A DNA stretch of 64,000 bases, from contig JAYVLQ010000093.1 of NCBI GenBank assembly GCA_043759355.1, positions 20,989 through 84,988 on the forward strand. Direction: 5' to 3'. Below are positions 22,756 through 49,637 of this stretch, piece after piece (positions within the stretch are counted from its first letter, which is position 1; each line of letters begins with the position of its first letter). The position numbers and the translations under genes are program-made. Below the pieces are notes generated by a model, which was not told the DNA's origin, did not search any database, and worked only from the letters and a program-made list of their open reading frames with translations. The stretch comes from Kofleriaceae bacterium (GTDB lineage: Bacteria > Myxococcota_A > Polyangia > Haliangiales > Haliangiaceae).

Positions 22756-22829
22756 TGCGCCCAGCAGGATTCGAACCTGCTGCCCCGAAATTAGAAATTT
22801 CGTGCTCTATCCAAATGAGCTATGGGCGC
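22756..22829 (-). tRNA. tRNA-Arg (anticodon TCT)
   Basis: The reverse complement folds by hand into a cloverleaf: GCGCCCA TA GCTC ATTTGGATA GAGC A CGAAA TTTCTAA TTTCG GGGCA GCAGG TTCGAAT CCTGC TGGGCGC A. 74 nt, CCA not encoded. Confidence 0.93.
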
Positions 22830-35860: not shown

Positions 35861-37465
35861 ATGCTGAGCCCGACGATGATGGATGTCCCGCTGACGATCG
35901 ATTGGATCGCCGATCGCGCCGAGCGCTGGATGGCGGATGGCGAAGTGGTCTCGCGTCGCCCCGATCGCAGCTTGTCGCGCACGACCTACGGCGCGCTGAT
36001 CGGTCGCGCGAAGCAGCTCGCGCGCGCCTTGGTCGGCATGGGCGTGAACAAGGGCGATCGCGTGGCGACGTTGATGTGGAATCACGCGGAGCACCTCGAG
36101 ACCTACTTCGGCATTCCGCTCTCGGGCGCCGTGATCCACACGCTGAACTTGCGGTTGCATCCCGACGAGATCGCGTTCATCGCGAAGGACGCGGGCGATC
36201 GCATGTTGATCGTCGATGACGTGCTCGTACCGCTGCTCGAGAAGGTGCTCGCCGCGGGCGCGAAATTCGAGAAGATCTGGGTGGTCGGCAACCACGGCAC
36301 GTACGACAGCTACGAGGCGCTGCTCGCGAGCTCCCTGGGGGCTGATGTTGTCGCGCTGCCGAAGCTCGCCGAGACCGACGCGCTCGGCCTCTGCTACACG
36401 AGTGGCACGACGGGCCGCTTGAAGGGCGTCGTGTACTCGCATCGCTCGACAGTGCTGCACTCGCTCGTGGTCGCCCTGCCCGACTCGTTAAACGTGTGTC
36501 GCAACGACGTGCTGTTGCCCGTCGTGCCGATGTTCCACGTCAACGCGTGGGGCTTGCCGTACGTGTGCGCGATGACCGGTGCGAAGCTCGTGTTTCCCGG
36601 CCCGTACCTCGATGCGGCAAGCTGTCTCGAATTGATGGAGAGCGAACAGGTGACCTGCGCCGCAGGTGTGCCGACGATCTGGATCGGCATTCGCGATGCG
36701 CTCGAGGCGAACCCCACCAAGTACAAGCTGCTGCCCACGATCCGGATGATCGTCGGCGGCTCGGCCGCACCCGAGCAACTGATCCGCGACTTCGACAAGT
36801 TCGGCCTCCGCCTCTTACACGCGTGGGGCATGACCGAGACGTCGCCCGTCGGTACCGTGTCGCGGCTCTCGCCCGAGCTCGAGCAGGCGGACCTCGATAC
36901 TCAGTACAAGCAGCGCGCGAAGCAGGGTCGGCCCGTGCCGCTCGTCGATCTGCGCGTGCGCAACGAAGCAGGCGACGTGCCGGCCGACGACAAGACCAGC
37001 GGCGAGGTCCAGATCCGCGGGCCGTTCATCGCCGGCAGTTACCTGGGTGGCTACACGCCGGAGCGTTGGACCGACGACGGTTACTTCAAGACCGGCGATG
37101 TCGCGCGGATCGACAAGCACGGCTATATCCAGCTCACGGATCGCGTCGCCGATATGATCAAGTCGGGCGGCGAGTGGATCGCATCGCAGGAGCTCGAGAA
37201 CGCGTTGATGGGCCATCCCGCGGTCAAGGAAGCGGCGGTGATCGGCGTCGCGCATCCCAGGTGGAGCGAGCGGCCCCTCGCGGTGGTCGTGTTGAAAGAT
37301 GGCGCGCAGGTCACCGGCGAAGAACTGCGTTCGTTCCTCGCGCCGAAGTTCGCGAAGTTCTGGCTTCCCGAAGCGGTCGAGTTCGTCGATGCGATTCCAC
37401 GCACCTCGGCGGGCAAGTTCAAGAAGACCGAGCTGCGCGAGAAGTTCCGCGACCGGAAGTGGTAA
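35861..37465 (+). CDS. Fatty-acid-CoA ligase (AMP-dependent synthetase/ligase)
   Basis: LCYTSGTTGRLKGVVYSH, WGMTETSP, GYFKTGDVARIDKHGYIQLTDR, SGGEWI, SAGKFKK. Confidence 0.9.
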   Translation: MLSPTMMDVPLTIDWIADRAERWMADGEVVSRRPDRSLSRTTYGALIGRAKQLARALVGMGVNKGDRVATLMWNHAEHLETYFGIPLSGAVIHTLNLRLHPDEIAFIAKDAGDRMLIVDDVLVPLLEKVLAAGAKFEKIWVVGNHGTYDSYEALLASSLGADVVALPKLAETDALGLCYTSGTTGRLKGVVYSHRSTVLHSLVVALPDSLNVCRNDVLLPVVPMFHVNAWGLPYVCAMTGAKLVFPGPYLDAASCLELMESEQVTCAAGVPTIWIGIRDALEANPTKYKLLPTIRMIVGGSAAPEQLIRDFDKFGLRLLHAWGMTETSPVGTVSRLSPELEQADLDTQYKQRAKQGRPVPLVDLRVRNEAGDVPADDKTSGEVQIRGPFIAGSYLGGYTPERWTDDGYFKTGDVARIDKHGYIQLTDRVADMIKSGGEWIASQELENALMGHPAVKEAAVIGVAHPRWSERPLAVVVLKDGAQVTGEELRSFLAPKFAKFWLPEAVEFVDAIPRTSAGKFKKTELREKFRDRKW

Positions 37466-37475
37466 CTTTGCCCCC

Positions 37476-38105
37476 GTGCCGTCGGTCCGCGCAGCGATCA
37501 AGAACGCGATGTTCGACCGCGTACCGGGCCTGCTCCGCCGTGGCCCCGCGACCACCAAGCGCGTCGCGCTCACCTTCGACGACGGCCCCGACGAGCTGAC
37601 GCCGCGCTACCTCGAGCTGCTTGATGATCTCGGCGTGCCGGCGACGTTCTTCGTGCTCGGCGAGCTCGCGAACAAGTACCCGGAGCACATCCGCGAGTAC
37701 CTCCGGCGCGGGCACCAGGTCGCGGGTCACGGCTACGATCACCAGCGATTCACGAAGCTGTCGCGGCGTGACTTACTCGATCAGTGCAAGCGCACCGACG
37801 AGGCGATCGGCGGCCAGGCCACGGGCACGTCCTGGGTCCGCCCGCCGCACGGTTCGCTCGATTCGATGTCACTGATCAACCTGCGCACGTCGGGCTACAC
37901 GGTCGCTCTGTGGTCGCTCGATTCGTGTGACTACTCCGATCGCGATCCGGCCACGCTCGCGCAGCGCTGCGTCTCGACCGCTGGCGAAGTGCTCCTGTTT
38001 CACGAGGGCCAGGAGTGGACGCTCGATGCGCTGCCGCGGATCGTCGCGGCGATCCACGGCGCGGGCCTCGAGTGCGTGACGATGTTCGATTTGTTCGCGC
38101 GCTAA
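37476..38105 (+). CDS. Polysaccharide deacetylase (NodB homology) family protein
   Basis: In-frame GTG 37476 (alternative ATG 37509) after the ligase stop. VALTFDDGPDE, GHQVAGHGYDH, RPPHG. The upstream part of ORF 37299 overlaps the ligase gene. Confidence 0.8.
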   Translation: MPSVRAAIKNAMFDRVPGLLRRGPATTKRVALTFDDGPDELTPRYLELLDDLGVPATFFVLGELANKYPEHIREYLRRGHQVAGHGYDHQRFTKLSRRDLLDQCKRTDEAIGGQATGTSWVRPPHGSLDSMSLINLRTSGYTVALWSLDSCDYSDRDPATLAQRCVSTAGEVLLFHEGQEWTLDALPRIVAAIHGAGLECVTMFDLFAR

Positions 38106-39130
38106 CCGGCGCGGGTCGCCCAGAATTTCGACATGATCGGCCATAACCGATCCGCCGCCTTGCGCGAGACGACCGCGCCGACGTGGCCGCCGCCTTGGAC
38201 GACCAGCTGTTTGTCGACAGACGACGTGCGATCGACGATCGGGGCGGCGCTATCGACCGGCACGATGTGATCGTCGGTGAATGCGATCGCGAGGATCGGG
38301 CACTTGATCGCCGAGAGATTCACGGGACGACCGGCGAGCGAGAACCCGCCGGTGATCAGGCGATTCTCCCGATAGAGCTCCTGGATGTACTGCGCGTAGC
38401 ACGCGCCCGGGAACGAGACATTGTCGCTGCCCCAGCGCTCGGTCGCGAGCATGCCTTCGAGGAACTCGTCGTCCCACGCGCGATCGAGGAGCGCGACGGT
38501 CTTCACCATGTCGCCCGCGGGCTTCAACATCTTGAACGTCGCCTGCATCAGCGGCCACGGCACGTTGCCGAATGCAGCGATCATCGAGCCGATATCGAAC
38601 GTCGGGACGCGCGTCCACGTCGTCATGATGCCGGCCTTGTCGAAGTCCAGTGGCGCGGCGAGCGCGAGGTACGAGGCGACGTGCTCGGGGAATGCGGCGA
38701 TGTAGGTCGTCGCGAGTGTCCCGCCGAGGCAGTAGCCAAGCATGTGGACCTTGCCCGACGGGCTGTAGCGCGCCGCGATCCGCGTCGCGCGGCCGATGTA
38801 GCGGCCGGCGATGTCGTCCCACGTGAGGTAGCGATCTTCGGCGCCAGGTGTGCCCCAATCGATGCAGAACACCTCGTGGCCCTGCGCGACGAGCCACTCG
38901 ATCAGCGAGCGCTCAGGCCCGAGATCGAGCACGTACCAGCGGTTGATGAGCGACGGGACCATCAGGATCGGCGTCTTGTACTTCGGCACCGCCGGTGCGA
39001 AGCGCATGAGCTTCCACTTGTTCTCGGTCCACACCACGGTGTGAGGCGTCGCACCGACGAGCGCGGGGCCCTTCGGCGCGCGCTTCCACAGCGCGACGAT
39101 CGAATCGAGTGGAGACTTCTGCGGCTTCAT
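38102..39130 (-). CDS. phaC: Class III-type poly(R)-hydroxyalkanoate synthase PhaC
   Basis: Trimmed to ATG 39128-39130 (MKPQKSPLDS), which overlaps the upstream stop as ATGA. 342 aa, lipase-box-like GYCLGG. ...ILMVPSLINRWYVLDL... ...FTDDHIVP... ...GGHVG. Confidence 0.85.
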   Translation of the reverse strand: MKPQKSPLDSIVALWKRAPKGPALVGATPHTVVWTENKWKLMRFAPAVPKYKTPILMVPSLINRWYVLDLGPERSLIEWLVAQGHEVFCIDWGTPGAEDRYLTWDDIAGRYIGRATRIAARYSPSGKVHMLGYCLGGTLATTYIAAFPEHVASYLALAAPLDFDKAGIMTTWTRVPTFDIGSMIAAFGNVPWPLMQATFKMLKPAGDMVKTVALLDRAWDDEFLEGMLATERWGSDNVSFPGACYAQYIQELYRENRLITGGFSLAGRPVNLSAIKCPILAIAFTDDHIVPVDSAAPIVDRTSSVDKQLVVQGGGHVGAVVSRKAADRLWPIMSKFWATRAG

Positions 39131-40752
39131 CACGCGTACAGCGCTTCGAAGCGCGCGTTGAGCCGCTCGTAGACGGCCTTGCGGCGGAGCTTGAGCGACG
39201 AGGTCAACGTGCCGTCTTCGACGGACAGCGGCGACTCCGCGATGAAGAACTTCTTGATCGATTCGTAGCGCGCGAGCTCGGCATTGATCGCCTCGACGCG
39301 CTGGGCGACGAGCTGATCGCGCTCGCCGGCCGACACCTCGGGGCGCGTCCAGATCGCGGCGACGAGGTAGCTGCGCGCATCTCCGTAGACCACGAGCCGC
39401 TCGATCACCGGATCGTCGACGAACTTCGCCTCGATGTTCGCGGGCGGCACGTTCTTGCCGCCGGCGGTGACGAGGATGTCCTTCTTGCGATCGATGATCT
39501 GGAGGAAGCCATCCTCGGTCCAGCGCCCGACATCGCCGGTGCGGAACCAGCCGTCTTCGGTGAACGCGGCCTTCGTCGCCTCGGGATCCTTGAAGTAGCC
39601 CTTGAACACGTTGTCGCCGCGCGCGAGGATCTCGCCATCGTCGTCGAGGCGCAGCTCGACCGAGGGGAACGCCTTGCCGACGGTGTCGAAGCGATACGCC
39701 TCGGGCTTGTTGAGCGTGAGCGTCGGCGAGGTCTCGGTCAGGCCGTAGCCCTCGATGATCAGCATGCCGTGCGCGTGGAGCTGCTGCTTGATCTCGACCT
39801 TGAGGCCGGCGCCGCCCGAGAGGCAGAACCGCAGGTTGCCGCCGGTGACGGTCTTCAGCGCGGCCTTGGTATCCGTTTGCGCCGCGACGAGCCGCGCGAT
39901 CTTTTCCCAGTAGGCAGGCACCGACATGAACACGTGCGGGGCGATCATCGGGAGGAGCTCGAGCACATCCGCGGGCGTCGCGAGGTAGGTCTCCCATGCG
40001 AGCACGTTGCCGGCGCACAGCTCCCCCCAGCCGAAGATATGGCTGAGCGGCAACCACAATAGATCGCGATCGCCTTCTTCGAGGAGCGCGGCGTTGCTCT
40101 CGAGCCAGTCGCGGCCGTTCGAGCCGACGTTGCGGTGCGACAGCGGCACGCCCTTCGGATTGCCCGAGGTGCCACTCGTGTAGAGCATCTCGGCCGGGTG
40201 ATCGAGCTCGAGCGCGGCGAGGCGCGCGTCGACGATCGCGGGGGTGACCGCATCGCGGCTCGCCGCGGCTTGCACCGAGTGCGGATCCGAGACCGTCGCA
40301 TCGGTCGCCCACGCACAGCTGTCAAGATCGAGGATCTGCGGCTTCGTGGCGAGCTGTGCGAGCGCCTTCTCGAGCCGCGACAAGGGCTCCTTGCCCGCGA
40401 CGAACACGTGCTCGATCTCGGCGTGACCGAGGATGTATGCGACTTGATCGGGCGTGGAGGCCGGATAGATCGGCACGAACACCGCGCCGGCGGTCTGCGC
40501 GCCGAGCGCCGCGCTGGCCCACGCGACAGAGTTCGCGGCGAAGATCGCGACGCGATCACCGACCGCGACATCCTGATCGATCAGCCAGCGAGCGACGCCG
40601 CGGATCTGGATCGCGAACTGACCCCACGAGACGGGCTGCCACGCGCCGGCCTTGTCGCGAACCTGGAAGCGCGGCTTGTCGCGATGGGTCGCGACGCGCG
40701 AGAACACCGCGGCAGGCGCCGGCGCGATCGTGAGGAGCTGGCTGACGTCCAT
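39130..40752 (-). CDS. Long-chain acyl-CoA synthetase (AMP-forming)
   Basis: Trimmed to ATG 40750-40752 (MDVSQLLT). MLYTSGTSGNPKGVPLSH, GYGLTETSP, GWFRTGDVGRWTEDGFLQIIDRKKD, GGKNV, LKLRRK. Confidence 0.85.
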   Translation of the reverse strand: MDVSQLLTIAPAPAAVFSRVATHRDKPRFQVRDKAGAWQPVSWGQFAIQIRGVARWLIDQDVAVGDRVAIFAANSVAWASAALGAQTAGAVFVPIYPASTPDQVAYILGHAEIEHVFVAGKEPLSRLEKALAQLATKPQILDLDSCAWATDATVSDPHSVQAAASRDAVTPAIVDARLAALELDHPAEMLYTSGTSGNPKGVPLSHRNVGSNGRDWLESNAALLEEGDRDLLWLPLSHIFGWGELCAGNVLAWETYLATPADVLELLPMIAPHVFMSVPAYWEKIARLVAAQTDTKAALKTVTGGNLRFCLSGGAGLKVEIKQQLHAHGMLIIEGYGLTETSPTLTLNKPEAYRFDTVGKAFPSVELRLDDDGEILARGDNVFKGYFKDPEATKAAFTEDGWFRTGDVGRWTEDGFLQIIDRKKDILVTAGGKNVPPANIEAKFVDDPVIERLVVYGDARSYLVAAIWTRPEVSAGERDQLVAQRVEAINAELARYESIKKFFIAESPLSVEDGTLTSSLKLRRKAVYERLNARFEALYA

Positions 40753-40754
40753 GG

Positions 40755-41054
40755 CTAGGGGACCTTCCGTGCGTGGAGTTGTTCTTCGAGATCGAACAAG
40801 CGGCTCTCCATCTGGTTGAGCTTGTGGAGCGTGAGCTCCTGGTCGCGGCGGTTCGGCAAGCCGCACATCGACCACCAGCGAGTCATCGCTTGATCAGTCG
40901 CGGCCTTGGTCTTCATCACGGTCGTGAGCAGTGCGCCGGCCGGACCGATCACGCTCGGGTTCGAGAGCGCCTTCTCGACGAATTGCGTCGTCGCCTTTTC
41001 CCACGCTCCGAAACCTTTTTTCCATGTGTCCCAGATGTTCAGCATCGTCGTCAT
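40755..41054 (-). CDS. Small PhaE/PhaR-like putative PHA synthase partner (coiled-coil C-terminus)
   Basis: 99 aa, Trp-rich N-terminus (WDTWKKGFGAWEKA). C-terminus GLPNRRDQELTLHKLNQMESRLFDLEEQL resembles the 'LPTRxDvdxLxkrlxeLe' end of PhaE-type subunits. Its stop lies 2 nt before the next start. Confidence 0.5.
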   Translation of the reverse strand: MTTMLNIWDTWKKGFGAWEKATTQFVEKALSNPSVIGPAGALLTTVMKTKAATDQAMTRWWSMCGLPNRRDQELTLHKLNQMESRLFDLEEQLHARKVP

Positions 41055-41055
41055 T

Positions 41056-41856
41056 TTAAGGCGTGCTCACTTTCTGGCCGAGGGCGAACCGCCGGACGTA
41101 CGTGGCGGTCGTGAAGTCCTCGGCGGCTTCGTCTTGCCTGCTCTCGGCGCGCGCGACCTCGCCGAAACACTCGAACATGAAGATCGTGGTGCGCTTGCTC
41201 ACCACTGGCGTGCCGGTCGAAGGCGTGCGCACCACGTTCGTGCGCACGCGGAGCACCGGCGAAAACTCGACGTAGGGGACATCCAGCCGCTCGCCCGCAG
41301 TGACATCGACCTCGACCTTGTCGGTGCCGACGAACGGCAGGCCCGCGACGATGGCGCTCGCGAGTGCCGCGGTCGTCGAGTACGTCAGACCATCGGTCAA
41401 CGGGAACCGGAGCAGCGCGATCGGATCGGCGTAGCGGATCAGGGTCTTGCCCGCGGCCGGCGCTGCTTCTTGCGAGGCCGTGCCGTCGAGCCAGAGCGCG
41501 CGATCATCCTGGTGATAGATGCCGTCGAGCCCCGAGCCCGCATCGACCGTGAACTGGCCGGTCGGAAATTGATTCGCGTACCATTGCGCGGCGAGCTGGA
41601 TCGGGCCGAGCGCGACGACCGCGTCCTCGGCAGACTCGACCGAGAGATCGTAGATGCCGTTCGATGGCGTGAGGTTGACCGTGCGATTCACGCCCGCGTA
41701 GTAGTCGACCGTGAAGCCGTATGCGATCGGCAGCTCGTCGGCGGTGATCTGGCCATCTCGGTTCGGCACGCAGTTGGGCAGCACCGGGGTGGGATCGGGT
41801 TGCGGCGTGAGGTTCGTGCTGCACGCAGCCAGGCCGATGAGAATTGCAGCGCGCAT
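41056..41856 (-). CDS. Lipoprotein, paralog of the C-terminal domain of 44435..45364
   Basis: Lipobox LIGLAAC. VPNRDGQITADELP ... TIFMFECFGEVARAES...YVRRF aligns with APNHDGMIEANEVP ... YAWITECFGSVATAT...EVRRL. The ATG overlaps the upstream stop (ATGA at 41854-41858). Confidence 0.7.
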   Translation of the reverse strand: MRAAILIGLAACSTNLTPQPDPTPVLPNCVPNRDGQITADELPIAYGFTVDYYAGVNRTVNLTPSNGIYDLSVESAEDAVVALGPIQLAAQWYANQFPTGQFTVDAGSGLDGIYHQDDRALWLDGTASQEAAPAAGKTLIRYADPIALLRFPLTDGLTYSTTAALASAIVAGLPFVGTDKVEVDVTAGERLDVPYVEFSPVLRVRTNVVRTPSTGTPVVSKRTTIFMFECFGEVARAESRQDEAAEDFTTATYVRRFALGQKVSTP

Positions 41857-44438
41857 CAGAATGCAAACCCCGCGCGGACGCGAAACGACTGTGCGGTCTG
41901 CGCCTTGAGAATGGTGTTATCGAACGCCGCGCCCGGTGCGAACACGCCGTAATCGAGCGTGAGGGCGAAGCCATCGCGGCTGACGTAGCGGAGCTCGGGA
42001 TCGAGCTCGATGCCAAGCGCGCGCTGCCCGCTCGGCGTGGACGTCGCCTCGATCGCCCACGAGGCGATCAGCGCCGCGCCGGCCTCGAGGTGACCGCCGC
42101 CGACCTCGAGCAGCGTCATCTTCGCGTGCGGGCGCAGATACACCGCGTCGGTGATCGTGCCGATGACCTCGCGGAACAAGATCTGATCGATGTGGTAGTC
42201 GGGATGAAACCGGAAGTTGTCGACGGTGCGATCACCCGGCGCACTCGCCTGTGGTCCATCGAATTGGCCCGGGATGGTCGCGGCCTGGCCCGCGGCCGGG
42301 AAGGCGCCGAAGCCCGGCGCGCTATCGCCGCTCGCGTAGCCGAGATCGAAGCCAATCTTACCGACACCGACGTTGGCGTCGCTCTCGACCGCGAGGCCGA
42401 GCTGCTTCGACGTGATCGGCTCGGTCACCGCGGCGCCCGGAATCAAGGAGGGCTGCGCGACGTTCGCCGCGAGGTACGCGAGCTCGGCCTCGATCCGGAA
42501 TCGGTCGCTCGAGATCCGGAACCAGCCACCGGTCGCGGTTGCCGTGAAGCCACGCGCGCTGAGGTCATGGCTGGTGAAGCTGGTGACCGGCGCGGCGGTC
42601 GGCAGGTACGAGGCCGGGACGTCGCGATCTTGCGTGCGATGCGAGATGTAGACCGCGTACTCGACGCTGGTCTTGCCGGCGGCGGCACGGCGCGCGAGCG
42701 CCGCGGGCGAATGGACCTTGAGGATCGCGAGCGTCGGACCGGCGACCGCATCGCTCGGCTCGAGCGCGATCGGGCGACCGCCATCCTTGCTCGTCGTGAA
42801 CGGGCCGCTCGAGGTCCAGTCGTAGGCAATGGCGAGCAAGTGACCGAACAGCGGCGACACGAACGCCGCGCGATCCGCGGAATCACCATGATCGCAATCT
42901 TCGCAGTCGCCACCGTTCGCATTGATTCCGAGCCCGAAGTGCGCGCCCATGCGACCGACCGCGAGCGTGCCGGCCGGCGTGAGTGCTTCGGCCCACGCGC
43001 GCTTGACGACGACCGTCGTCGGCCGCTGCCCGCCGCTGGTCGCCGGCGAACCGCCCGCGAGATCAGGTGAGCCTCCAAGCGCGACGTTATCGAGCCAGTC
43101 GACGCGCGCCTTGACCGCCACGCCGACACCCGGCGCGTACGCCGCGAGATCGGTGCGCGCACGCATGTCGTTGCTCTGGATCAGCTGACCGCCGCCGAGT
43201 GGAATCGGAAAGACCGGCTTGCCGGTCGTATCGAGCCCGCGATCGAGATCGAGGTTGTAGAGCTGTGCCGTGCGTACGCGGAGCGCACCGTGAATCACGA
43301 GCTCGACCTTCTCGCGCGGCGCCGCGTACATCCGCGGCGTGAGCTCCGAGCCGAGCGACGCGAGGTCCGCGCCGAGCGGTAGCCGATTCGAATCGTCGAC
43401 GGGCGGCGGGCCGAAGCCTTCGGGCACTTTCGGGGTCTCTTCCGGATCCACGTGCGCGGCATTGCTGTCGTTGCCGCCGGTACCACCGCCGCTGCCGCCA
43501 CTCGTCTCGGTGGGCATGGGCGCAGGTGCCGGCTCTGGTTCCGCCCCCGCGCGGTCGGTATCGAGGAAGGTAACGAGATCCCTCGTCGAGGCGTTGTGAG
43601 CCTCGACCATCGGGATGTGGCCACAGTGCTGGTAGATCTCGAGTTTGGCATTCTGCAGCTCGTTGACGAGCCGATACGCGAAGCTCACCGGCGTCACCTG
43701 ATCCTGCGCGCCCCACAGCAACAGCACCGGCTTCGCGAAGCCACGCAGCTGCTCGTGCAGCCCGGCGAAGTGATGGCCACGCGCGACCGCGAGCGCGGCC
43801 GCCGTGGTGCCCGGTCGATCCATGCTGTCCTCGACACGCTCGACGCGCGCCTGCGTGACCCAGCGCTCGTCGTAGTACGCGAGTGGCGCACGGTCTTCCA
43901 TACGCTCCGTGTAGAACAGCCCGAACAGGAGTTCGCCGAGGCCCGATTTCTGCGCCCAGCGGAAGAAGCTCGGCACTTGATCGTCGTAGACGTACGCGTC
44001 GTAGAGTGCGACGCGCCGCACGCGTTCGGGATGCTGGACCGCCATCGCGACCGATACCGACGCGCCCCACGAGTGGCCGACGATCGCTACGTCGTCGACG
44101 CCGAGCTTGTCGAGCACGTGCCACACGAGGTCTGCTTGCGCGGCTGGCGAGTAATCGCCTTCGGGCCGGCTCGTCCAGCCGAAGCCCTTGAGATCGATCG
44201 CGATCACGCGATGATGCGCGGCGACCGGAGGAGCGACACTGGCCCAGCTATCGAGCGAGGCGCCGTAGCCGTGGATCATCACGACCCCAGGACCGGAGCC
44301 GGTTTCACGATAGCGCACGCGGATCCCGTCGACGTCGACGAACGTCGCATCGGCGGGCGCACCTCGAAGCGGTCCCGCATGGAAGCTCGGGCAACCCGCG
44401 AGGACGAGCGCCAACGCGCAGGTGGCGAGGGCTCTCAA
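41856..44438 (-). CDS. Lipoprotein alpha/beta-hydrolase fused to a large C-terminal putative outer-membrane beta-barrel domain
   Basis: Trimmed to TTG 44436-44438, which overlaps the upstream stop (TTGA). MRALATCALALVLAGC lipobox. VMIHGYG, GHSWGAS, CGHIPM triad elements. Gly/Pro linker. About 500-aa domain with alternating pattern ending ...FRVRAGFAF (C-terminal Phe). Confidence 0.75.
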   Translation of the reverse strand: MRALATCALALVLAGCPSFHAGPLRGAPADATFVDVDGIRVRYRETGSGPGVVMIHGYGASLDSWASVAPPVAAHHRVIAIDLKGFGWTSRPEGDYSPAAQADLVWHVLDKLGVDDVAIVGHSWGASVSVAMAVQHPERVRRVALYDAYVYDDQVPSFFRWAQKSGLGELLFGLFYTERMEDRAPLAYYDERWVTQARVERVEDSMDRPGTTAAALAVARGHHFAGLHEQLRGFAKPVLLLWGAQDQVTPVSFAYRLVNELQNAKLEIYQHCGHIPMVEAHNASTRDLVTFLDTDRAGAEPEPAPAPMPTETSGGSGGGTGGNDSNAAHVDPEETPKVPEGFGPPPVDDSNRLPLGADLASLGSELTPRMYAAPREKVELVIHGALRVRTAQLYNLDLDRGLDTTGKPVFPIPLGGGQLIQSNDMRARTDLAAYAPGVGVAVKARVDWLDNVALGGSPDLAGGSPATSGGQRPTTVVVKRAWAEALTPAGTLAVGRMGAHFGLGINANGGDCEDCDHGDSADRAAFVSPLFGHLLAIAYDWTSSGPFTTSKDGGRPIALEPSDAVAGPTLAILKVHSPAALARRAAAGKTSVEYAVYISHRTQDRDVPASYLPTAAPVTSFTSHDLSARGFTATATGGWFRISSDRFRIEAELAYLAANVAQPSLIPGAAVTEPITSKQLGLAVESDANVGVGKIGFDLGYASGDSAPGFGAFPAAGQAATIPGQFDGPQASAPGDRTVDNFRFHPDYHIDQILFREVIGTITDAVYLRPHAKMTLLEVGGGHLEAGAALIASWAIEATSTPSGQRALGIELDPELRYVSRDGFALTLDYGVFAPGAAFDNTILKAQTAQSFRVRAGFAF

Positions 44439-45364
44439 GGAATCAGCCTGCGGACTTCCGCGTCCGAGCCGAACTCGCTGTCCGGCGAGACCGAGGTTGT
44501 CGAACCAGCTGTCGCCGTGGCAACCGAGCCAAAGCACTCCGTGATCCACGCGTAGGAATGCACCGAGTAGTAGACCGAGCCGAGCTGCGACTGCGCGAGA
44601 ATGGTGCTGACGCGGAGGACCGGAAAATCTCCGTACGGCGTCGACATCGTGCCTGTCTGATCGACGTTCGAGACGTACTTCTCGGTGTAGTTCACACCGA
44701 ACGGGAACGCCGCCGTGGTTCCGGTTACCGTACTGCTGGACGTCCACGTCGAGCTCGCACCGAACGGCACCGCGAGAATCCTCGCCGGCGGGTCGTACGT
44801 GAGCTCGGTGGATCCAGAGCCACCGCTCGGCGACACGACGCCGAGCAGCGTTACGCCAGTCGAGTCGACGTGAAAAACGCCTTGAAGATCCGAACTTTTT
44901 GCGAGCGTCGTCACGTACGTCGCCGTCGAGAAGCTCGCGTCGGCCGCCCACCACTTGCCTGCCGGAGCGTCGAGCGTGACCGCGCCATCGGCATCGTTCG
45001 CGAGCGCACCGGTCAGCGACCACGTGCGCGTTTCGCCGCTCGAGGCGGTGCCTTGCGTGTTCCAGGTCGCGCTGGTCGCGATCCGGTAGTTCGCCATCTT
45101 GCCCGCTGCGAGCGGCACTTCATTCGCCTCGATCATGCCGTCGTGATTCGGCGCGCACAGCGCATTCGATCCGCTATCGACGTTGCTGCCACTACCACTG
45201 CCATCGCCGGCATCAGTCGTGGCCGGGCCGCACGTGCCGTCCGCGCGGCAGAAGTGCGAGGCGCACTGGTCACGGCTCGTGCACGGCGTACCCGAGCTCG
45301 ACCCGCACCCGCCGACGACGAGCATGCTGCAGCGCAGCACGAAATTAGCGATTCGGGTCGACAT
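44435..45364 (-). CDS. Lipoprotein with Cys-rich N-terminal knot and paralogous C-terminal domain
   Basis: Start chosen at MSTRIANFVLRCSMLVVGGC (45362-45364; the ORF extends to 45394). CTSRDQCASHFCRADGTC, Gly/Ser linker, then a domain paralogous to 41056..41856. Confidence 0.7.
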   Translation of the reverse strand: MSTRIANFVLRCSMLVVGGCGSSSGTPCTSRDQCASHFCRADGTCGPATTDAGDGSGSGSNVDSGSNALCAPNHDGMIEANEVPLAAGKMANYRIATSATWNTQGTASSGETRTWSLTGALANDADGAVTLDAPAGKWWAADASFSTATYVTTLAKSSDLQGVFHVDSTGVTLLGVVSPSGGSGSTELTYDPPARILAVPFGASSTWTSSSTVTGTTAAFPFGVNYTEKYVSNVDQTGTMSTPYGDFPVLRVSTILAQSQLGSVYYSVHSYAWITECFGSVATATAGSTTSVSPDSEFGSDAEVRRLIP

Positions 45365-45409
45365 GCGGCGCACGCTAGCGAGCGTGATGAGCATCTGTCA
45401 AGGCTTCTT

Positions 45410-45420
45410 TTGCGGCGCAA
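45410..45420. promoter_or_regulatory. Perfect 11-bp palindrome TTGCGGCGCAA (TGC-N3-GCA core) in the phaR/operon divergent intergenic region
   Basis: Read directly. It lies between start 45364 (minus) and phaR ATG 45445. Confidence 0.5.
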
Positions 45421-45444
45421 CAAAATCCGCCCTTGCAGTGCGAC

Positions 45445-46119
45445 ATGGCTCCCCGTAAGGTGCAGCCCGTGGCGACGGTCCTCATCAAGAAGTACGGAAA
45501 TCGCCGCCTCTACGATACCGGAGATTCGCGCTACATCACGCTGGACGAGCTCGCGACCAAGGTCCGCGGCGGCACCGATGTTCGCGTGGTCGATGCGCAG
45601 ACGGGTGACGACCTCACGCAAGCGAGCCTCGTGCAGGTCGTGCTCGAGACCGGTAACGCCGCGAAGTTTCTGCCGACCCAGCTGCTCACGCAGATGATCC
45701 GGCTCTCGGATGATTCGCTCGCGGAGTTCTTCAGCCGTTACGTCACCAATGCGCTCGACCTCTATCTCCAGGCCAAGCGCGGTGTGCAGTCACTCGGCGG
45801 TTACAGCCCGCTCGCGCAGATCCCGATGGCCGCGACCGATGCCCTCACGCGGATGTGGATGGGGTCGCCGTTCGGCGGCTACCCGCCCCAGTACGGCGGC
45901 GGTTACGCCGCTCCACCGCCGAGCTATCCCACGCAGGCTCCGCCTCCGGAGCCACCGCCGTTCGATGCCCACGACGTTCAGCCGGAGCCGGTCGTCGCGA
46001 AATCGAATGGGGATGAAGTCGCGGCGATGCGACGCGAGCTCGAAGAGCTCAAGCAAGCCGTGCGAGAGAGCATCAGCGCGCGACCCGCGGCACGCAAGAA
46101 AAAGAAACAGACCGAGTAG
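45445..46119 (+). CDS. phaR: PHA synthesis repressor PhaR
   Basis: MAPRKVQPVATVLIKKYGNRRLYDTGDSRYITLDEL is the hallmark N-terminal PhaR DNA-binding domain. Pro/Tyr-rich linker, charged C-terminus. The tracked ORF starts at TTG 45433. Confidence 0.85.
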   Translation: MAPRKVQPVATVLIKKYGNRRLYDTGDSRYITLDELATKVRGGTDVRVVDAQTGDDLTQASLVQVVLETGNAAKFLPTQLLTQMIRLSDDSLAEFFSRYVTNALDLYLQAKRGVQSLGGYSPLAQIPMAATDALTRMWMGSPFGGYPPQYGGGYAAPPPSYPTQAPPPEPPPFDAHDVQPEPVVAKSNGDEVAAMRRELEELKQAVRESISARPAARKKKKQTE

Positions 46120-46283
46120 CGGGCGTCAGTCTGCGCCGTACTAGCTGCGCGGTGCGCGTCTGCAGCACGCGAAGGACGTGCTCGCGAACCACGTCGTCGA
46201 GCGCTTGCACCTGCGGGAGCGCTTGCGCGTGCGGGGCGGCTTGTTCGGTCGAGCTGCGCGCGGTTGGGGAGAGTTCCTGTATG

Positions 46284-46294
46284 CTGCATCGCAA
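46284..46294. promoter_or_regulatory. CTGCATCGCAA (TGC-N3-GCA core), upstream of the MFS gene
   Basis: Read directly in the AT-richer 46120-46395 intergenic region. Confidence 0.4.
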
Positions 46295-46358
46295 CAAAAC
46301 TGATCACCCAACGCACCGCGTAACTCTATGTTTTTGTGTGGCTGAAATTTGTTGTCTA

Positions 46359-46369
46359 TTGCGTCGCAG
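46359..46369. promoter_or_regulatory. TTGCGTCGCAG (TGC-N3-GCA core), 27 nt upstream of the MFS start
   Basis: Read directly. Confidence 0.4.
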
Positions 46370-46395
46370 TATATTTTTGGGCTATCGCAGCACGC

Positions 46396-47724
46396 ATGGA
46401 GCGGACTCTTCAACCGTCGGTGCCCACCATGACCGCCCTGACCCCCGGCTCGCCAACCAGGGCTTATCGCCATTATGTCCTGGCGATCCTGGTGGTCGTC
46501 TACACGATGAACTTCGTCGATCGACAGATCCTCGCGATCCTCGGGCCTTCGGTCATCAAAGAGTTCACGCTGACCGATTCGCAGTTCGGCTTGATGTACG
46601 GCACCGCGTTCGCGTTGCTCTACACCACGCTCGCACTGCCGATCGCGTGGTTCGCGGATCGCAGCTCGCGCCGTAACATCATGTCGGTCGCGGTGCTCGT
46701 GTGGAGCGCTTTCACCGCGCTGTGCGGAGTCACGCACTCGTTCACCCAGATCTTTCTCGCGCGTGTCGGCGTCGGCGTCGGTGAGGCCGGTGGCGTCGCA
46801 CCCGCCTACTCGTTCATCGCGGACTACTTCCCGAAGTCGCAGCGTGCGCGCGCTCTCTCGGTTTACTCGCTCGGCATCCCGCTCGGCAGCGCGTTCGGGA
46901 TCTTGTTCGGCGGCTTGATCGCGCATGCCTTGAGCTGGCGCTGGGCGTTCGTGCTCGTCGGTGGTGTCGGCGTGCTCGTCGCCCCGATCTTCCGCCTCAC
47001 CGTGCGCGATCCCAAGCGCGGCGGCTACGAGACCTCGGCGGTCCTCGCCGACGCACCGGCCGCAGTCACGGCCACGCCTCCGTCGCTGCTCGAGGTGTTC
47101 CGCATCGTCTCGAAGAAGTCCTCGTTCTGGCTTCTCTCGTTCGGCGCCGCGGCGTCTTCGGTGTGCGGCTACGGCGTGGCCGGTTGGCTGCCGAGCTTTT
47201 TCAAGCGCAGCCTCCACCTCGGTGATGTCGATCGCGCCTGGTACTACGCCGGCATCACGCTGATCGGCGGCTGCCTCGGCGTCCTCGGCGGCGGCATCCT
47301 CGCCGACCGCGCGGGCAAGGCGAGCAAGCGCGCGTATCCGATCATCCCCGCGCTCGCCTTCCTCGTCTCGCTACCGTGCTTCTTCCTCGCGATGAACACC
47401 TCGTCGCTGGTGGTCGCGTTCCCGCTGTTCCTGATCCCGACCGGCCTCAACCTGATGTGGCTCGGCCCGATCATCACGGCGGTGCAGCACCTCGTGCCCG
47501 CTCACATGCGCACGACCGCCTCGGCGATGTTCCTGCTCATCAACAACCTGCTCGGCATCGCCGTCGGTCTCTGGTACTTCGGCTTCATCTCGGACAAGCT
47601 CAAGCCGCACTTCGGTGACGAGTCGCTGCGCTACGCGCTCTACACGGGCCTGGGCTTCTATCTGGTCTCGTCCGCGCTGTTCCTGCTGGCCTCGCGCAAG
47701 CTCACCAAGCACTGGGTTGAATAG
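46396..47724 (+). CDS. MFS transporter
   Basis: Start chosen at MERTLQPS (alternative Met at 46429). NFVDRQILAILGPS, WFADRSSRRN (motif A-like), LARVGVGVGEAG, 12-TM pattern. Confidence 0.85.
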   Translation: MERTLQPSVPTMTALTPGSPTRAYRHYVLAILVVVYTMNFVDRQILAILGPSVIKEFTLTDSQFGLMYGTAFALLYTTLALPIAWFADRSSRRNIMSVAVLVWSAFTALCGVTHSFTQIFLARVGVGVGEAGGVAPAYSFIADYFPKSQRARALSVYSLGIPLGSAFGILFGGLIAHALSWRWAFVLVGGVGVLVAPIFRLTVRDPKRGGYETSAVLADAPAAVTATPPSLLEVFRIVSKKSSFWLLSFGAAASSVCGYGVAGWLPSFFKRSLHLGDVDRAWYYAGITLIGGCLGVLGGGILADRAGKASKRAYPIIPALAFLVSLPCFFLAMNTSSLVVAFPLFLIPTGLNLMWLGPIITAVQHLVPAHMRTTASAMFLLINNLLGIAVGLWYFGFISDKLKPHFGDESLRYALYTGLGFYLVSSALFLLASRKLTKHWVE

Positions 47725-47736
47725 CTGCGATGCAGC
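47724..47736. promoter_or_regulatory. Inverted repeat GCTGC-GAT-GCAGC (contains CTGC-N3-GCAG)
   Basis: Read directly. It begins at the last base of the MFS stop codon, about 100 nt upstream of the phasin start. Confidence 0.5.
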
Positions 47737-47765
47737 AACTTTTTAAATTTCTCGTCGCTGAGTAT

Positions 47766-47782
47766 TTTGTGCAATGCACAAA
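47766..47782. promoter_or_regulatory. Perfect 17-bp palindrome TTTGTGCAATGCACAAA (TGC-N3-GCA core), abutting the -35
   Basis: Read directly, 8-1-8 symmetry. Confidence 0.55.
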
Positions 47783-47789
47783 TTTGGTC

Positions 47790-47818
47790 TTGACGACCCC
47801 CGGCATCGAACGTAAGGT
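47790..47818 (+). promoter_or_regulatory. Sigma70-like promoter TTGACG-N17-TAAGGT for the phasin gene
   Basis: TTGACG 47790-47795 and TAAGGT 47813-47818, then AAGGAG 47829-47834 and ATG 47837. Confidence 0.5.
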
Positions 47819-47836
47819 GGGGACACTCAAGGAGCC

Positions 47837-48163
47837 ATGCCTATGTCGACCGATACCAAGAACCAGCCTCCCGTCACCGCCACCCCCTCGATGCAGAACC
47901 CGTTCGTCGGATTTGACCCGATGACCGCCTGGGCGCAGGGCCAAGCCCAGATGCAGCAGATGATGGCGGACGCGTTCGGCCGCATGGCGTCGTTCGCGAC
48001 CGAGTACGCCTCGATGGAGTCGCAGTTCGTCGCCAAGGCGCAGGACGCGATGAAGAACTTCGCGCAGCTCTCGGCCGACGCGCTCGCGAATGGTGCGCAG
48101 CTCTCGACGCAGGCCCGCAAGGTCGGCCTCGAGAACGCGAAGAAGCTCTCGAACCTCGCGTAG
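47837..48163 (+). CDS. Phasin-like small helical protein
   Basis: 108 aa, Ala/Gln/Met-rich with predicted helices. Strong RBS and promoter with PhaR-type palindromes. The assignment rests mainly on context. Confidence 0.6.
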   Translation: MPMSTDTKNQPPVTATPSMQNPFVGFDPMTAWAQGQAQMQQMMADAFGRMASFATEYASMESQFVAKAQDAMKNFAQLSADALANGAQLSTQARKVGLENAKKLSNLA

Positions 48164-48176
48164 TTCGTCCTGGCAC

Positions 48177-48245
48177 GCGCCAGATCCGGCTGCCCATGCG
48201 TGGCGCTTTGATGCGCCAGACACGCATGGGCATCTGGCGTTTCGG
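48177..48245 (+). terminator. Long imperfect hairpin downstream of the phasin gene
   Basis: GCGCCAGAT (48177-85) pairs with ATCTGGCGt (48232-40). GCCCATGCGTG (48192-202) pairs with CACGCATGGGC (48221-31). Inner pair GGCGC/GCGCC. Followed by TTTCGG. Confidence 0.5.
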
Positions 48246-48338
48246 CTCAGGTCGTCCAGCACCAGAGACCGACATCGTGAGCGCTTAGCCGCATATTTCG
48301 GCGATGAAAATCGTGTACTTACGTGATAAGACACGGGC

Positions 48339-49637
48339 ATGGCTTCGGGGATTTTTGCGGCACCAGCGGGTTTCCGCGATAGCCCCACCCGTCCGCTGAG
48401 CCACGGCGAGGTGGTCGCTTCGACCTACGCTATCCGCGACGAGATCAGCCGCACCGACACCGGCATCGTGTTCGAAGCACGCGACATGCTGCTCGACCGC
48501 TCGGTCGCGTTCAAGCTCGCGTGGCGCGACCCGGGGTTTCCGTCGCTGCTCGCCGAAGCGCGGCGCTGCGCGGCCGTGCGCGACCCGTGCGCGGTGCAGG
48601 TCCACGGCATGGGCGTCCACAACGGCGCCGAGTACGTCGTCGGCGAGCGCGTCGAAGGTCACCTGCTACGCGACGAGCTGATCCGACCCCTCGCAGCCGA
48701 GGTCTTCCTCGCGCGATTGCGAACGCTGATCGCCGCGGTCACACGCGCGCATGATGGCGGCATCGCGGTCGGTGACATCTCGGGATCGACCGTGATGGTC
48801 GATCCGGGCGCGCGCTCGAACGGCGGCATCAGCGACCGCTTGGTCCTGGGCCGGCTGTCGCTGTCGCAGATTCCAGCGTTCGGTCCGCACGGTCGGATCA
48901 TGGCTCCGGAGGTCGTGCGCGGTGACGTCGAACCCGGAGATCCAGCGGCGGCCGAAGCGATCGATCTCTACGGTCTCGGGTGCGTCGCGATCGAGATGGC
49001 GTCCGGTGCGCCTCCCTTTGCCGATGACGATCCGATGGTCGAAGCACGCGGCCATGCCTCGGCGCCGTCACCGCGGATCACGGATCTGCGCCCTGACTTG
49101 CCGAGCGAGGTTTCGGACATTGTCGATTGGTTGCTCGCCAAGGCGCCCGCGGCGCGTCCACGCTCGGCGGGCGACGTGTTGCTCCAGCTCGAAGCGATCA
49201 CCGAACGGCTCGGCCATCGCAGCCGCACGCTGCGGATCCTGATCGTCGATGACGATACGGCACGTGCGCGCTGGCTGTGGAGCCTCGCTCGCCGCGCGCA
49301 TCCGGCCGCCGCGGTCGAGATCGCGAGCGAAGGCACCGATGCGGCGCACAAGCTCAATCGCGACCAACCCGACCTCGTATTCGTCGATGCGGCGCTGCGC
49401 GGGGTGATGAACGCGCTCGAGCTCTGCATGTACGCTCGCGGCCTCGAAGGTGGGGGGCGCAGCCAGATGGTGATGGTCGGCTCGGTCGGTGAGCGCGACA
49501 AGGCGCTGTTTGCCGAGGCATCGGTACACTTTATCCCCGATGACGCCGCGCTCCCGAACGCGATCCTCGAGCGGGTTCGCCAGGCGTTCACCGAGGCCCC
49601 GCGTGTTCGCAAAACGCGCGTCACGGTCTCGGGTTAA
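48339..49637 (+). CDS. Degenerate protein-kinase (pseudokinase-like) domain fused to a C-terminal receiver (REC) domain
   Basis: VAFKLAW (Lys kept). HDGGIAVGDISGSTV stands in place of H-GIVHRDLKPxN. No DFG. APE kept (IMAPEV). C-terminus RILIVDDD...PDLVFVDAAL...MVMVGS. Confidence 0.75.
   Translation: MASGIFAAPAGFRDSPTRPLSHGEVVASTYAIRDEISRTDTGIVFEARDMLLDRSVAFKLAWRDPGFPSLLAEARRCAAVRDPCAVQVHGMGVHNGAEYVVGERVEGHLLRDELIRPLAAEVFLARLRTLIAAVTRAHDGGIAVGDISGSTVMVDPGARSNGGISDRLVLGRLSLSQIPAFGPHGRIMAPEVVRGDVEPGDPAAAEAIDLYGLGCVAIEMASGAPPFADDDPMVEARGHASAPSPRITDLRPDLPSEVSDIVDWLLAKAPAARPRSAGDVLLQLEAITERLGHRSRTLRILIVDDDTARARWLWSLARRAHPAAAVEIASEGTDAAHKLNRDQPDLVFVDAALRGVMNALELCMYARGLEGGGRSQMVMVGSVGERDKALFAEASVHFIPDDAALPNAILERVRQAFTEAPRVRKTRVTVSG

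Follow-up and report, generated by a model that had tools for sequence, protein, structure and literature searches.

A conserved operon, apparently PhaR-controlled, joins a probable class-III-type polyhydroxyalkanoate synthase and an acyl-CoA synthetase to outer-envelope proteins in a Kofleriaceae bacterium

The window analysed here is a stretch of 64,000 nucleotides (nt) from a Kofleriaceae bacterium (GCA_043759355.1, contig JAYVLQ010000093.1, positions 20,989-84,988 of the forward strand). It contains six minus-strand genes, called g1 to g6 in order of transcription, in which the genes of a polyhydroxyalkanoate (PHA) synthase and an acyl-CoA synthetase follow genes for outer-envelope proteins. 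The gene for the PHA-responsive regulator PhaR is divergent from them. The gene content, its conservation in other genomes, and its control by PhaR can jointly be put forward with high confidence, and this is most likely a PHA operon under PhaR control, of a kind that is typical of the Polyangia and Bradymonadales; its carriers are soil and predatory myxobacteria. The best explanation for the whole is that the operon serves a salvage route from the cell surface to the storage granule, which we hold with some reserve and consider close to an even call. The features of the locus are as follows.

44435-45364, minus strand: g1, lipoprotein of 309 amino acids (aa), with the lipobox LVVGGC read from the sequence
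43548-44438, minus strand: g2, N-terminal part, with a lipoprotein signal (LAGC) and a serine alpha/beta-hydrolase domain (aa 30-297)
43305-43547, minus strand: g2, Gly/Pro-rich disordered linker (aa 298-378), with an AlphaFold2 confidence score (pLDDT) below 50 at aa 299-373
41856-43304, minus strand: g2, C-terminal part, putative outer-membrane beta-barrel of the TIGR04551 family (aa 379-860), ending in Phe
41056-41856, minus strand: g3, lipoprotein of 266 aa paralogous to g1, with the lipobox LAAC
40755-41054, minus strand: g4, "mini-PhaE" of 99 aa, with the C-terminal conserved PhaE region only
39130-40752, minus strand: g5, AMP-forming acyl-CoA synthetase of the long-chain (ACSL/FadD11-like) type, 540 aa
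38102-39130, minus strand: g6, PhaC, class-III-type PHA synthase catalytic subunit, 342 aa
45445-46119, plus strand: phaR, PHA-responsive regulator, divergent from the operon; a 224-aa gene call in L090 (see below) agrees on the start
45408-45425: main PhaR-operator-like palindrome, TTTTGTTGCGCCGCAAAA in the orientation of the operon, with the core TGC-N3-GCA at 45411-45419
45434-45442: second, degenerate operator half-site, CGCACTGCA, abutting the phaR start codon
45372-45401, minus strand: putative operon promoter, with TTGACA (45396-45401), an 18-nt spacer, TAGCGT (45372-45377), and 7 nt before the g1 ATG

The six open reading frames (ORFs) are present at the positions given in a preliminary description of this DNA. 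The results of an independent gene caller for this contig (ENA ERZ27314299, designated L090 among the homologous loci compared, all of which carry L-numbers) are the same for g2 to g6, with 860, 266, 99, 540, and 342 aa. The sole disagreement concerns g1, which this caller starts at an ATG at 45394 and which had first been placed at 45364. The alternative ATG lies between the -35 and -10 elements of the promoter and is not conserved, and the conserved promoter in an alignment of phaR-g1 spacers supports the start at 45364. The genes are tightly packed. There is a TTGA overlap of 4 nt between g1 and g2, a TGATG overlap of 1 nt between g2 and g3 and again between g5 and g6, a gap of 1 nt between g3 and g4, and a gap of 2 nt between g4 and g5. 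The junctions first described as TTGA, 1 nt, and 2 nt therefore stand, and those described as ATGA (g2/g3 and g5/g6) do not. Only the wording was wrong, since the coordinates that came with it already imply overlaps of 1 nt. On the strand of the operon, a scan for sigma-70 promoters and terminators gave no terminator-like site. With no internal gaps beyond these, no such site, and one conserved operator and promoter before g1, it is very likely that g1 to g6 form a single transcription unit, as was proposed. The GC content is 0.66-0.69 across the block and the composition is flat. Thus, the block is not an island.

Domain models uphold the kinds of product proposed for the six genes. The protein encoded by g6 contains PhaC_N (PF07167, E 3.3e-11) and an alpha/beta-hydrolase domain (PF00561, E 2.1e-13), and its length lies within the ~340-360 aa of class III catalytic subunits. 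Its best PDB match is Cupriavidus necator PhaC (5hz2, E 1e-37). Cys134 (in GYCLGG), Asp287, and His316 align on the catalytic triad of that enzyme and are invariant in 21 homologues. Of the PhaC models, the class III model TIGR01836 scores best (262.6 bits, as against 178 bits for class I and 69 bits for class II). This score is below the curated cut-off of 365.3; g6 is therefore called class-III-type and is not filed as a class III member.

The 99-aa product of g4 had been called PhaE-like. By itself it is a weak match to PF09712 (model positions 230-307 of 311, E 3e-3, 17.2 bits against a cut-off of 25.7). An exhaustive HMMER search found 176 cluster representatives of its family, nearly all of 95-160 aa. 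When members were compared singly, 31 of 79 matched PF09712, the best with E 4.8e-11, and the name is borne out by this homology at the level of the family. The homology covers the C-terminal region only, so g4 is not a full-length PhaE. The longer members of the family were scanned for informative fusions and none was found. No similarity was seen between g4 and the phasin-like protein encoded at 47843-48163. It is likely, judging from these matches, that g4 and g6 are the two subunits of a class-III-type PHA synthase.

Between them, g5 encodes a protein with an AMP-binding domain (PF00501, E 2e-68) and the AMP-binding_C_3 lid that is typical of long-chain ligases (PF23562, E 2.1e-9). Thus, it has both parts expected of an acyl-CoA synthetase of the ANL superfamily. 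Its PDB relatives are generic ANL enzymes, CoA ligases and adenylation domains of carboxylic acid reductases. The long-chain type of this ligase and the modest class III score of g6 could indicate that the product is not PHA. The two enzymes might form or turn over another ester store, of the acylglycerol or wax type, as could be imagined from the actinobacterial fusions of PhaC-like and acyl-CoA synthetase domains (PRK07868). Positions 37-358 of the 994-residue model of these fusions are matched by g6 with E 5e-22. However, the invariant Cys nucleophile in GYCLGG is a hallmark of the synthases, and g6 is accompanied by a PhaE relative, by PhaR and its operator, and by a phasin-like gene. Relatives such as Bradymonas form Nile-blue-positive PHA granules (PMC7460792). 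We regard a product other than PHA as very improbable.

The conservation of the locus was explored with a scan seeded with PhaC, in which one genome per species was used. A total of 80 loci were found in Kofleriaceae, Haliangiales, Polyangiaceae, Labilithrix, Sandaracinaceae, and Bradymonadales (Persicimonas), and their taxonomy was checked. The six-gene count uses the 47 informative loci, in which 7.6 kb or more precede phaC, and the count of ligase and PhaE uses the 64 loci in which 2.3 kb or more do so. All six genes are present in 43 of the 47, and phaR is divergent from them in 42 of these. A ligase gene adjoins phaC, with a PhaE-like gene upstream, in 63 of the 64, and the median junctions are a few nt. 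A recurrence this frequent, in 43 of 47 informative genomes, goes far beyond what chance would give. The block is also found in a metagenome-assembled genome (MAG) of Persicimonas (L067). A reverse search through metagenomes, started from g3, agrees with the scan. In 38 of the 39 loci with enough flanking sequence, g4 and g5 come directly after g3, down to 40% identity, and g6 also follows wherever the contig is long enough. The preliminary description had made its proposal depend on synteny in other genomes, and this synteny is evident across Myxococcota. The sole exception in the reverse search, L170, still has phaR, PhaC, an acyl-CoA synthetase, and PhaJ alongside.

The remaining four of the 47 loci are reduced. 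Two keep only the hydrolase of the envelope genes (L024 and L027), one has phaE-acs-phaC (L037), and one has phaE-phaC (L032). The hydrolase of L027 keeps its lipobox. In L024, Ala replaces the lipobox Cys and a hydrophobic, signal-like N-terminus is kept. The hydrolase thus still looks exported in both, and a reading of these two variants as cytoplasmic PhaZ was dropped on account of the lipobox of L027 and the signal-like stretch of L024.

Other loci are rearranged. Separate genes encode the hydrolase (lipobox LLPGC) and the barrel (signal peptide AQA/TGF) in L087-L089, so that g2 of the window is a fusion. The same three loci have a short-chain dehydrogenase gene and a gene for a small protein beside phaR. 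The genes for these two proteins and phaR are neighbours in L087, where the dehydrogenase (121-870) is of the adh_short/KR type and PhaB-like. L082 and L083 have their lipoprotein, hydrolase, and barrel genes on the strand of phaR, and a gene of the major facilitator superfamily (MFS) overlaps a longer PhaE-like gene, which is followed by the ligase. L170 (303-10795), from a lineage of lower GC (59%), has the order g1-hydrolase-barrel-g3 after a PhaC/PHB-depolymerase-like (PHB_depo_C/DUF3141-like) gene, divergent from phaR. On the other side, leading up to phaR, are in turn MaoC/PhaJ, a small protein, a different ligase of the AMP-binding_C type, and a different PhaC. A small ORF upstream of the PhaC-like gene of L170 is PhaE-like by eye, with a weak profile comparison (E 0.02, probability 2%). 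The envelope module stays with the PHA genes through fission, strand swap, and synthase replacement. The PhaJ of L170 and the dehydrogenase of L087 beside the locus indicate that the route is not universally self-contained.

Adjacency of this sort could be an inherited gene order with no functional link. Most of the loci come from one class, Polyangia, and the counts are inflated by shared ancestry. Yet the association persists at 39-50% protein identity. It also persists with other gene orders, strands, and fusion states and with a different PhaC and ligase (L082, L087, and L170), and the operator is shared as well. A merely inherited order is disfavoured and barely credible.

As first described, phaR is divergent and 80 nt from g1, with its ATG at 45445. 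Its product contains PHB_acc_N (E 1.3e-24) and scores 94.3 bits against the TIGR01848 equivalog model, which is below the cut-off of 109.45. A palindrome had been reported in the spacer between phaR and g1. Two were found, TTGCGGCGCAA (45410-45420) and the imperfect CGCACGCTAGCGAGCG (45369-45384). The core TGC-N3-GCA, which we take to be that of the PhaR site of Rhodobacter sphaeroides, is present in 49 of 50 phaR-g1 spacers and is often paired, 23 bp apart. When 18 spacers were aligned, the main operator formed the conserved block TTTTGYTGCNNNGCAAAA, and CTTGACA and TAGCGTGC were conserved blocks as well. The order in the alignment is [T/C]GCNNNGCAAG at the phaR start, which is the conserved form of the second half-site, followed by the main operator block, CTTGACA, 18 nt, TAGCGT, 7 nt, and the g1 ATG (45364). 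The sigma-70 scan found nothing on the operon strand, and the conserved promoter is visible solely in the multi-genome alignment. Its layout from TTGACA to the ATG (45362-45401, minus strand) predicts a leaderless g1 mRNA and speaks against the gene call at 45394. An operator followed by TTGACA is also seen in the distant loci L087 and L082.

The same core is found before other genes. There are 34 copies in the window, 8 of which lie within 45328-47778, and the chance density is ~0.5 per kb window-wide. Beyond phaR, two copies precede an MFS gene (46285 and 46360) and two precede the phasin-like gene (47726 and 47770). The phasin-like orthologue has the core upstream in 26 of 26 loci, with a density of 9.4 per kb as against a background of 0.6 per kb. 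Since the operator is common to them, phaR, the operon, and the genes for the MFS and phasin-like proteins look like a single PhaR regulon, and the whole six-gene operon looks PhaR-controlled.

The first three genes encode putative envelope proteins. Each begins with a signal peptide that ends in a lipobox (VGGC in g1, LAGC in g2, and LAAC in g3), and the lipobox Cys is invariant in g2 (Cys16) and g3 (Cys12). The lipoproteins g1 and g3 are paralogues, with 30% identity over 243 aa (E 3e-20). Cys12, Cys29, and Cys230 of g3 are invariant across homologues, and the extra invariant Cys residues of g1 and g3 are consistent with exported, disulfide-bonded proteins. The family has 455 detectable members, of which none is named and none has a Pfam domain; g1 has no match in Pfam or NCBIfam. 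The AlphaFold model of g3 is all-beta (pLDDT 67). It is probable that g1 and g3 bind substrate or act as accessories. The two share the motif C-x-P-N-x-D-G-x-I-x-A-x-E-x-P (g1 aa 70-84, ~45113-45157; g3 aa 29-43, ~41728-41772), which resembles a calcium loop of the EF-hand or dockerin type. A second conserved motif, ECFG, is also common to both.

The protein encoded by g2 is most likely a lipid-anchored serine esterase fused with an outer-membrane beta-barrel, as far as can be judged from its sequence. Its hydrolase domain matches Abhydrolase_1 with E 7.5e-36, and Cys16, Ser123 (GHSWG), Asp246, and His274 are invariant in 35 homologues. Fold searches matched C-C hydrolases, esterases, the phospholipase A PlaF, and a Bacillus PhaZ (rank 43). 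PHA depolymerase models give 76 bits (NF050089, cut-off 300) and 43 bits (TIGR02240, cut-off 250), and neither cut-off is reached. The linker lies where the gene boundary is found in L087 and L170, in which hydrolase and barrel are separate genes. The stand-alone homologues fit this division, as the barrel has a signal peptide of its own (AQA/TGF) and the hydrolase has a lipobox. With 304.5 bits over model positions 3-518 of 519, the barrel only just exceeds the TIGR04551 cut-off of 300, and its homologues are named "TIGR04551 family protein" in the source databases. Its AlphaFold2 model has ~18-19 long strands. In a fold search with full-length g2, alpha/beta-hydrolase matches dominate and the barrel is left unclassified by fold. 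Among 17 barrel sequences there was no Pfam match, FadL and Toluene_X included, other than two weak and not significant matches to Alginate_exp.

Taken together, these genes could serve to import, activate, and store acids released from esters. The preliminary description had proposed such a scavenging-to-storage route, which is coherent and plausible on the present evidence. A leaderless transcript would start at the g1 ATG and run through all six genes. The g2 esterase would hydrolyse esters at the envelope, such as polyester oligomers or acyl and 3-hydroxyacyl lipids of prey, of detritus, or of the cell's own envelope. The released acids would pass the outer membrane through the barrel and would then cross the inner membrane unaided or by way of the neighbouring carboxylate MFS symporter. 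The g5 ligase would trap them as CoA thioesters, as happens to fatty acids with FadL and FadD. Polymerisation would follow. 3-Hydroxyacids could go directly to PhaC, and ordinary fatty acids would first need beta-oxidation and a PhaJ encoded elsewhere. Once polymer appears, PhaR would leave its operator, which would be a feed-forward induction of uptake, synthase, and phasin-like protein. This import mechanism is more tentative than the explanation of the operon as a whole. A biochemical precedent is known from Pseudomonas putida, where re-activation by FadD1 makes free (R)-3-hydroxyalkanoic acids available to PhaC again (PMC8764540). Bradymonabacteria accumulate PHA during predation and are without FabB/F and FabI (PMC7460792). 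The block is present in the Persicimonas MAG, and the ecology fits a salvage route.

A narrower form of this reading is a line for recycling polyester and lipid in predatory and saprophytic Myxococcota and Bradymonadales. Here (R)-3-hydroxyacyl esters of prey or detritus, for example PHA oligomers or the acyl chains of lipid A, would be re-polymerised as intact monomers, and central metabolism would be bypassed. Capture would fall to an esterase-channel complex at the surface or in the periplasm, together with two binding lipoproteins of a new kind. A ligase coupled to the channel and a minimal PhaE/PhaC synthase would do the rest, under feed-forward control by PhaR. In this specific form the reading is speculative and rather unlikely.

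A number of points weigh against the import route. All NCBIfam matches of g5 are below their cut-offs, no curated subfamily claims it, and its substrate cannot be read from the sequence. Class III PhaC is usually a short-chain enzyme (PMC6403647). A long-chain-type ligase beside a class-III-type PhaC is an uneasy match, and g6 itself is below the class III cut-off. The fold of the g2 hydrolase is generic and is equally near C-C hydrolases, esterases, lipases, and one PhaZ. No relative of the barrel was found when its profile was compared with PDB sequences. A fold search with the g3 model gave no significant match in the PDB (best E 0.08, TM <=0.25). Control by PhaR suggests a response to an internal polymer cue rather than to an external substrate. 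With phaC behind the PhaR operator and no PhaC2 nearby, the start of synthesis is left unexplained. L037 has the synthase and ligase without envelope genes, and L032 has the synthase alone.

Alternatively, the modules could be co-regulated and mechanistically separate. The ligase would then serve an internal PHA cycle or supply from beta-oxidation, for instance by re-activating monomers from an intracellular depolymerase. The envelope set would merely be timed with storage, and would carry out turnover of outer-membrane lipids (cf. PldA and FadD) or general nutrient hydrolysis. A role for acyl-CoA synthetase in the PHA cycle is established in P. putida (PMC8764540), and L037 has the phaE-acs-phaC core but no envelope genes. 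The TIGR04551 family is wider than this locus, g2 is barely above its cut-off, and the hydrolase is as similar to the membrane phospholipase PlaF as to anything else. However, in the 47 genome loci and 39 metagenome loci the envelope module is never away from PHA genes, and it tracks them through fission, inversion, and synthase replacement. The conserved block contains no intracellular depolymerase gene. Separate modules are therefore an unlikely explanation, though one to be taken seriously.

The barrel could also transport outward. Hydroxyacids, oligomers, or another hydrophobic product would be shed through it during mobilisation, and the esterase would trim them in the envelope. P. putida does release (R)-hydroxyalkanoic acids extracellularly when PhaZ is active (PMC8764540). 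The two weak barrel matches are to an alginate-export porin family, which is a polymer exporter, but as noted they are not significant. The operon has an acid-consuming ligase and a synthase, not a depolymerase, and the neighbouring MFS proteins belong to families of H+-symporters, which act in uptake. Export is accordingly improbable.

The locus resembles several known systems in part. As in the class III PhaE/PhaC synthases of Allochromatium vinosum and Synechocystis, there is a catalytic subunit of ~340-360 aa with a G-x-C-x-G-G box and a Cys-Asp-His triad, co-transcribed with a PhaE-related partner, and TIGR01836 is the best PhaC model. Unlike them, g4 has only 99 aa and is equivalent to about the last 80 of the 311 positions in the PhaE model; phaE and phaC are separated by a ligase gene, and three envelope genes are upstream in the operon. 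The PhaE of haloarchaea is also short. The PHA cycle of P. putida (PhaC1/C2, PhaZ, and FadD1/ACS1) has the same triad of hydrolase, acyl-CoA synthetase, and synthase (PMC8764540). There the depolymerase is cytoplasmic and granule-bound and the ligase is encoded elsewhere, whereas here the hydrolase appears to be an exported lipoprotein joined to a barrel and the ligase gene is within the synthase operon.

In the vectorial acylation of Escherichia coli, the outer-membrane barrel FadL works with the cytoplasmic AMP-forming ligase FadD, which traps the acid as its CoA ester. PldA-FadD outer-membrane lipid signalling adds an outer-membrane lipase step. The window likewise encodes a putative barrel, an AMP-forming ligase, and a putative esterase. 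Its barrel has no sequence relation to these (no Pfam match), its esterase is a separate alpha/beta-hydrolase domain, and, unlike FadL/FadD, its output would be wired to a polymerase and not to beta-oxidation. The PhaR-PhaP circuit of Paracoccus, Cupriavidus, and Rhodobacter is similar in having a divergent PHB_acc_N regulator and palindromes of the TGC-N3-GCA type in its own and the phasin-like promoter. The operator here differs in that it also fronts synthase, ligase, and envelope genes. The Sus-like loci of Bacteroidota also encode a barrel, a lipoprotein hydrolase, accessory lipoproteins, an MFS protein, and a regulator together. This is an analogy only, as the locus has no SusD homologue, its barrel does not depend on TonB, and an ester, not a glycan, is the presumed substrate.

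PHA metabolism is regarded as purely cytoplasmic and as fed through phaA/phaB, phaJ, or phaG. It had been noted that phaA, phaB, and phaJ are missing here. This holds, since no gene for a thiolase, a PhaB-type reductase, or MaoC/PhaJ was found within 10 kb on either side (L090) or among 20 further ORFs of the window. The individual parts are of known kinds, namely a PhaC/PhaE-type synthase, PhaR, an ANL ligase, lipoproteins, and an outer-membrane barrel. What appears to be new is the combination of a 99-aa PhaE, a ligase gene between phaE and phaC, and an envelope esterase-channel set in one PhaR-controlled operon. The preliminary description knew of no PHA system of this composition, and none was found in the searchable literature, nor was any description of the six-gene operon, of TIGR04551, or of the TGC-N3-GCA site.

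To our knowledge, a link between the cell surface and the storage granule has been examined by nobody. Synthase, ligase, and outer-envelope proteins behind one PHA-responsive promoter imply such a link. If the import route is true, it would account for the PHA that accumulates in fatty-acid-auxotrophic predators as they feed, and it would be a direct path for carbon from polymer to polymer in soil carbon cycling. It would also offer parts for the upcycling of hydroxyacids and polyester hydrolysates, such as the 99-aa minimal PhaE, the synthase-coupled ligase, and the esterase-channel. The locus gives a testable context to two orphan families, the TIGR04551 barrels and the g1/g3 lipoproteins. 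In addition, a PhaR operator and a leaderless promoter are predicted for a poorly studied phylum.

Two further genes of the putative regulon lie beyond phaR.

46429-47724, plus strand: MFS organic-anion symporter (MFS_1, E 2.4e-53), candidate inner-membrane importer
47843-48163, plus strand: phasin-like small helical protein of 106/108 aa, candidate granule protein by size, composition, position, and PhaR motifs

The best NCBIfam matches of the MFS protein are the D-galactonate, PgtP, and aromatic-acid symporter families, and its orthologues adjoin phaR in ~9 genome loci. Three kinds of MFS protein of the carboxylate or organic-acid type recur beside phaR: that of the window, that of L082 (5034-6290), and a third, cluster-7, in 18 loci (for example L047, 908-2872). 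The phasin-like protein matches no family in Pfam or NCBIfam, those of phasins included. It is rich in Ala and Gln and is a candidate for a new phasin family.

A second PhaC paralogue, ~45% identical to the operon PhaC, is found by the phasin-like gene beyond phaR in ~21 genomes. Its loci include L007, L010, L024, L027, L032, L036, L037, L041 (1904-2851), L045, L047, L050, L058, L062, L067, L070, L073, L078, and L079. All four genomes without the complete envelope module have it; the 64-kb window does not.

A tandem-repeat scan of 37000-49000 gave nothing relevant. A Ser/Thr-kinase-like domain fused to a response-regulator receiver is encoded at 48339-49637 on the plus strand. In 29 genomes its orthologues are close to the PHA locus, at the phaC end instead of the phaR end. 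On the phaC side of the window, the plus strand carries a second acyl-CoA ligase gene (35861-37465; PRK06187, 544 bits, above the cut-off of 476) and a polysaccharide deacetylase gene (~37476-38105), the stop of which overlaps the phaC stop by 4 nt. These two genes converge on phaC, and several genomes have both of them close to the locus. The one Rfam match in the window is a tRNA (22756-22829, minus strand), which is of no relevance here. Far from the locus, two minus-strand genes for acyl-CoA dehydrogenases are present at 9170-10330 and 62708-63964.

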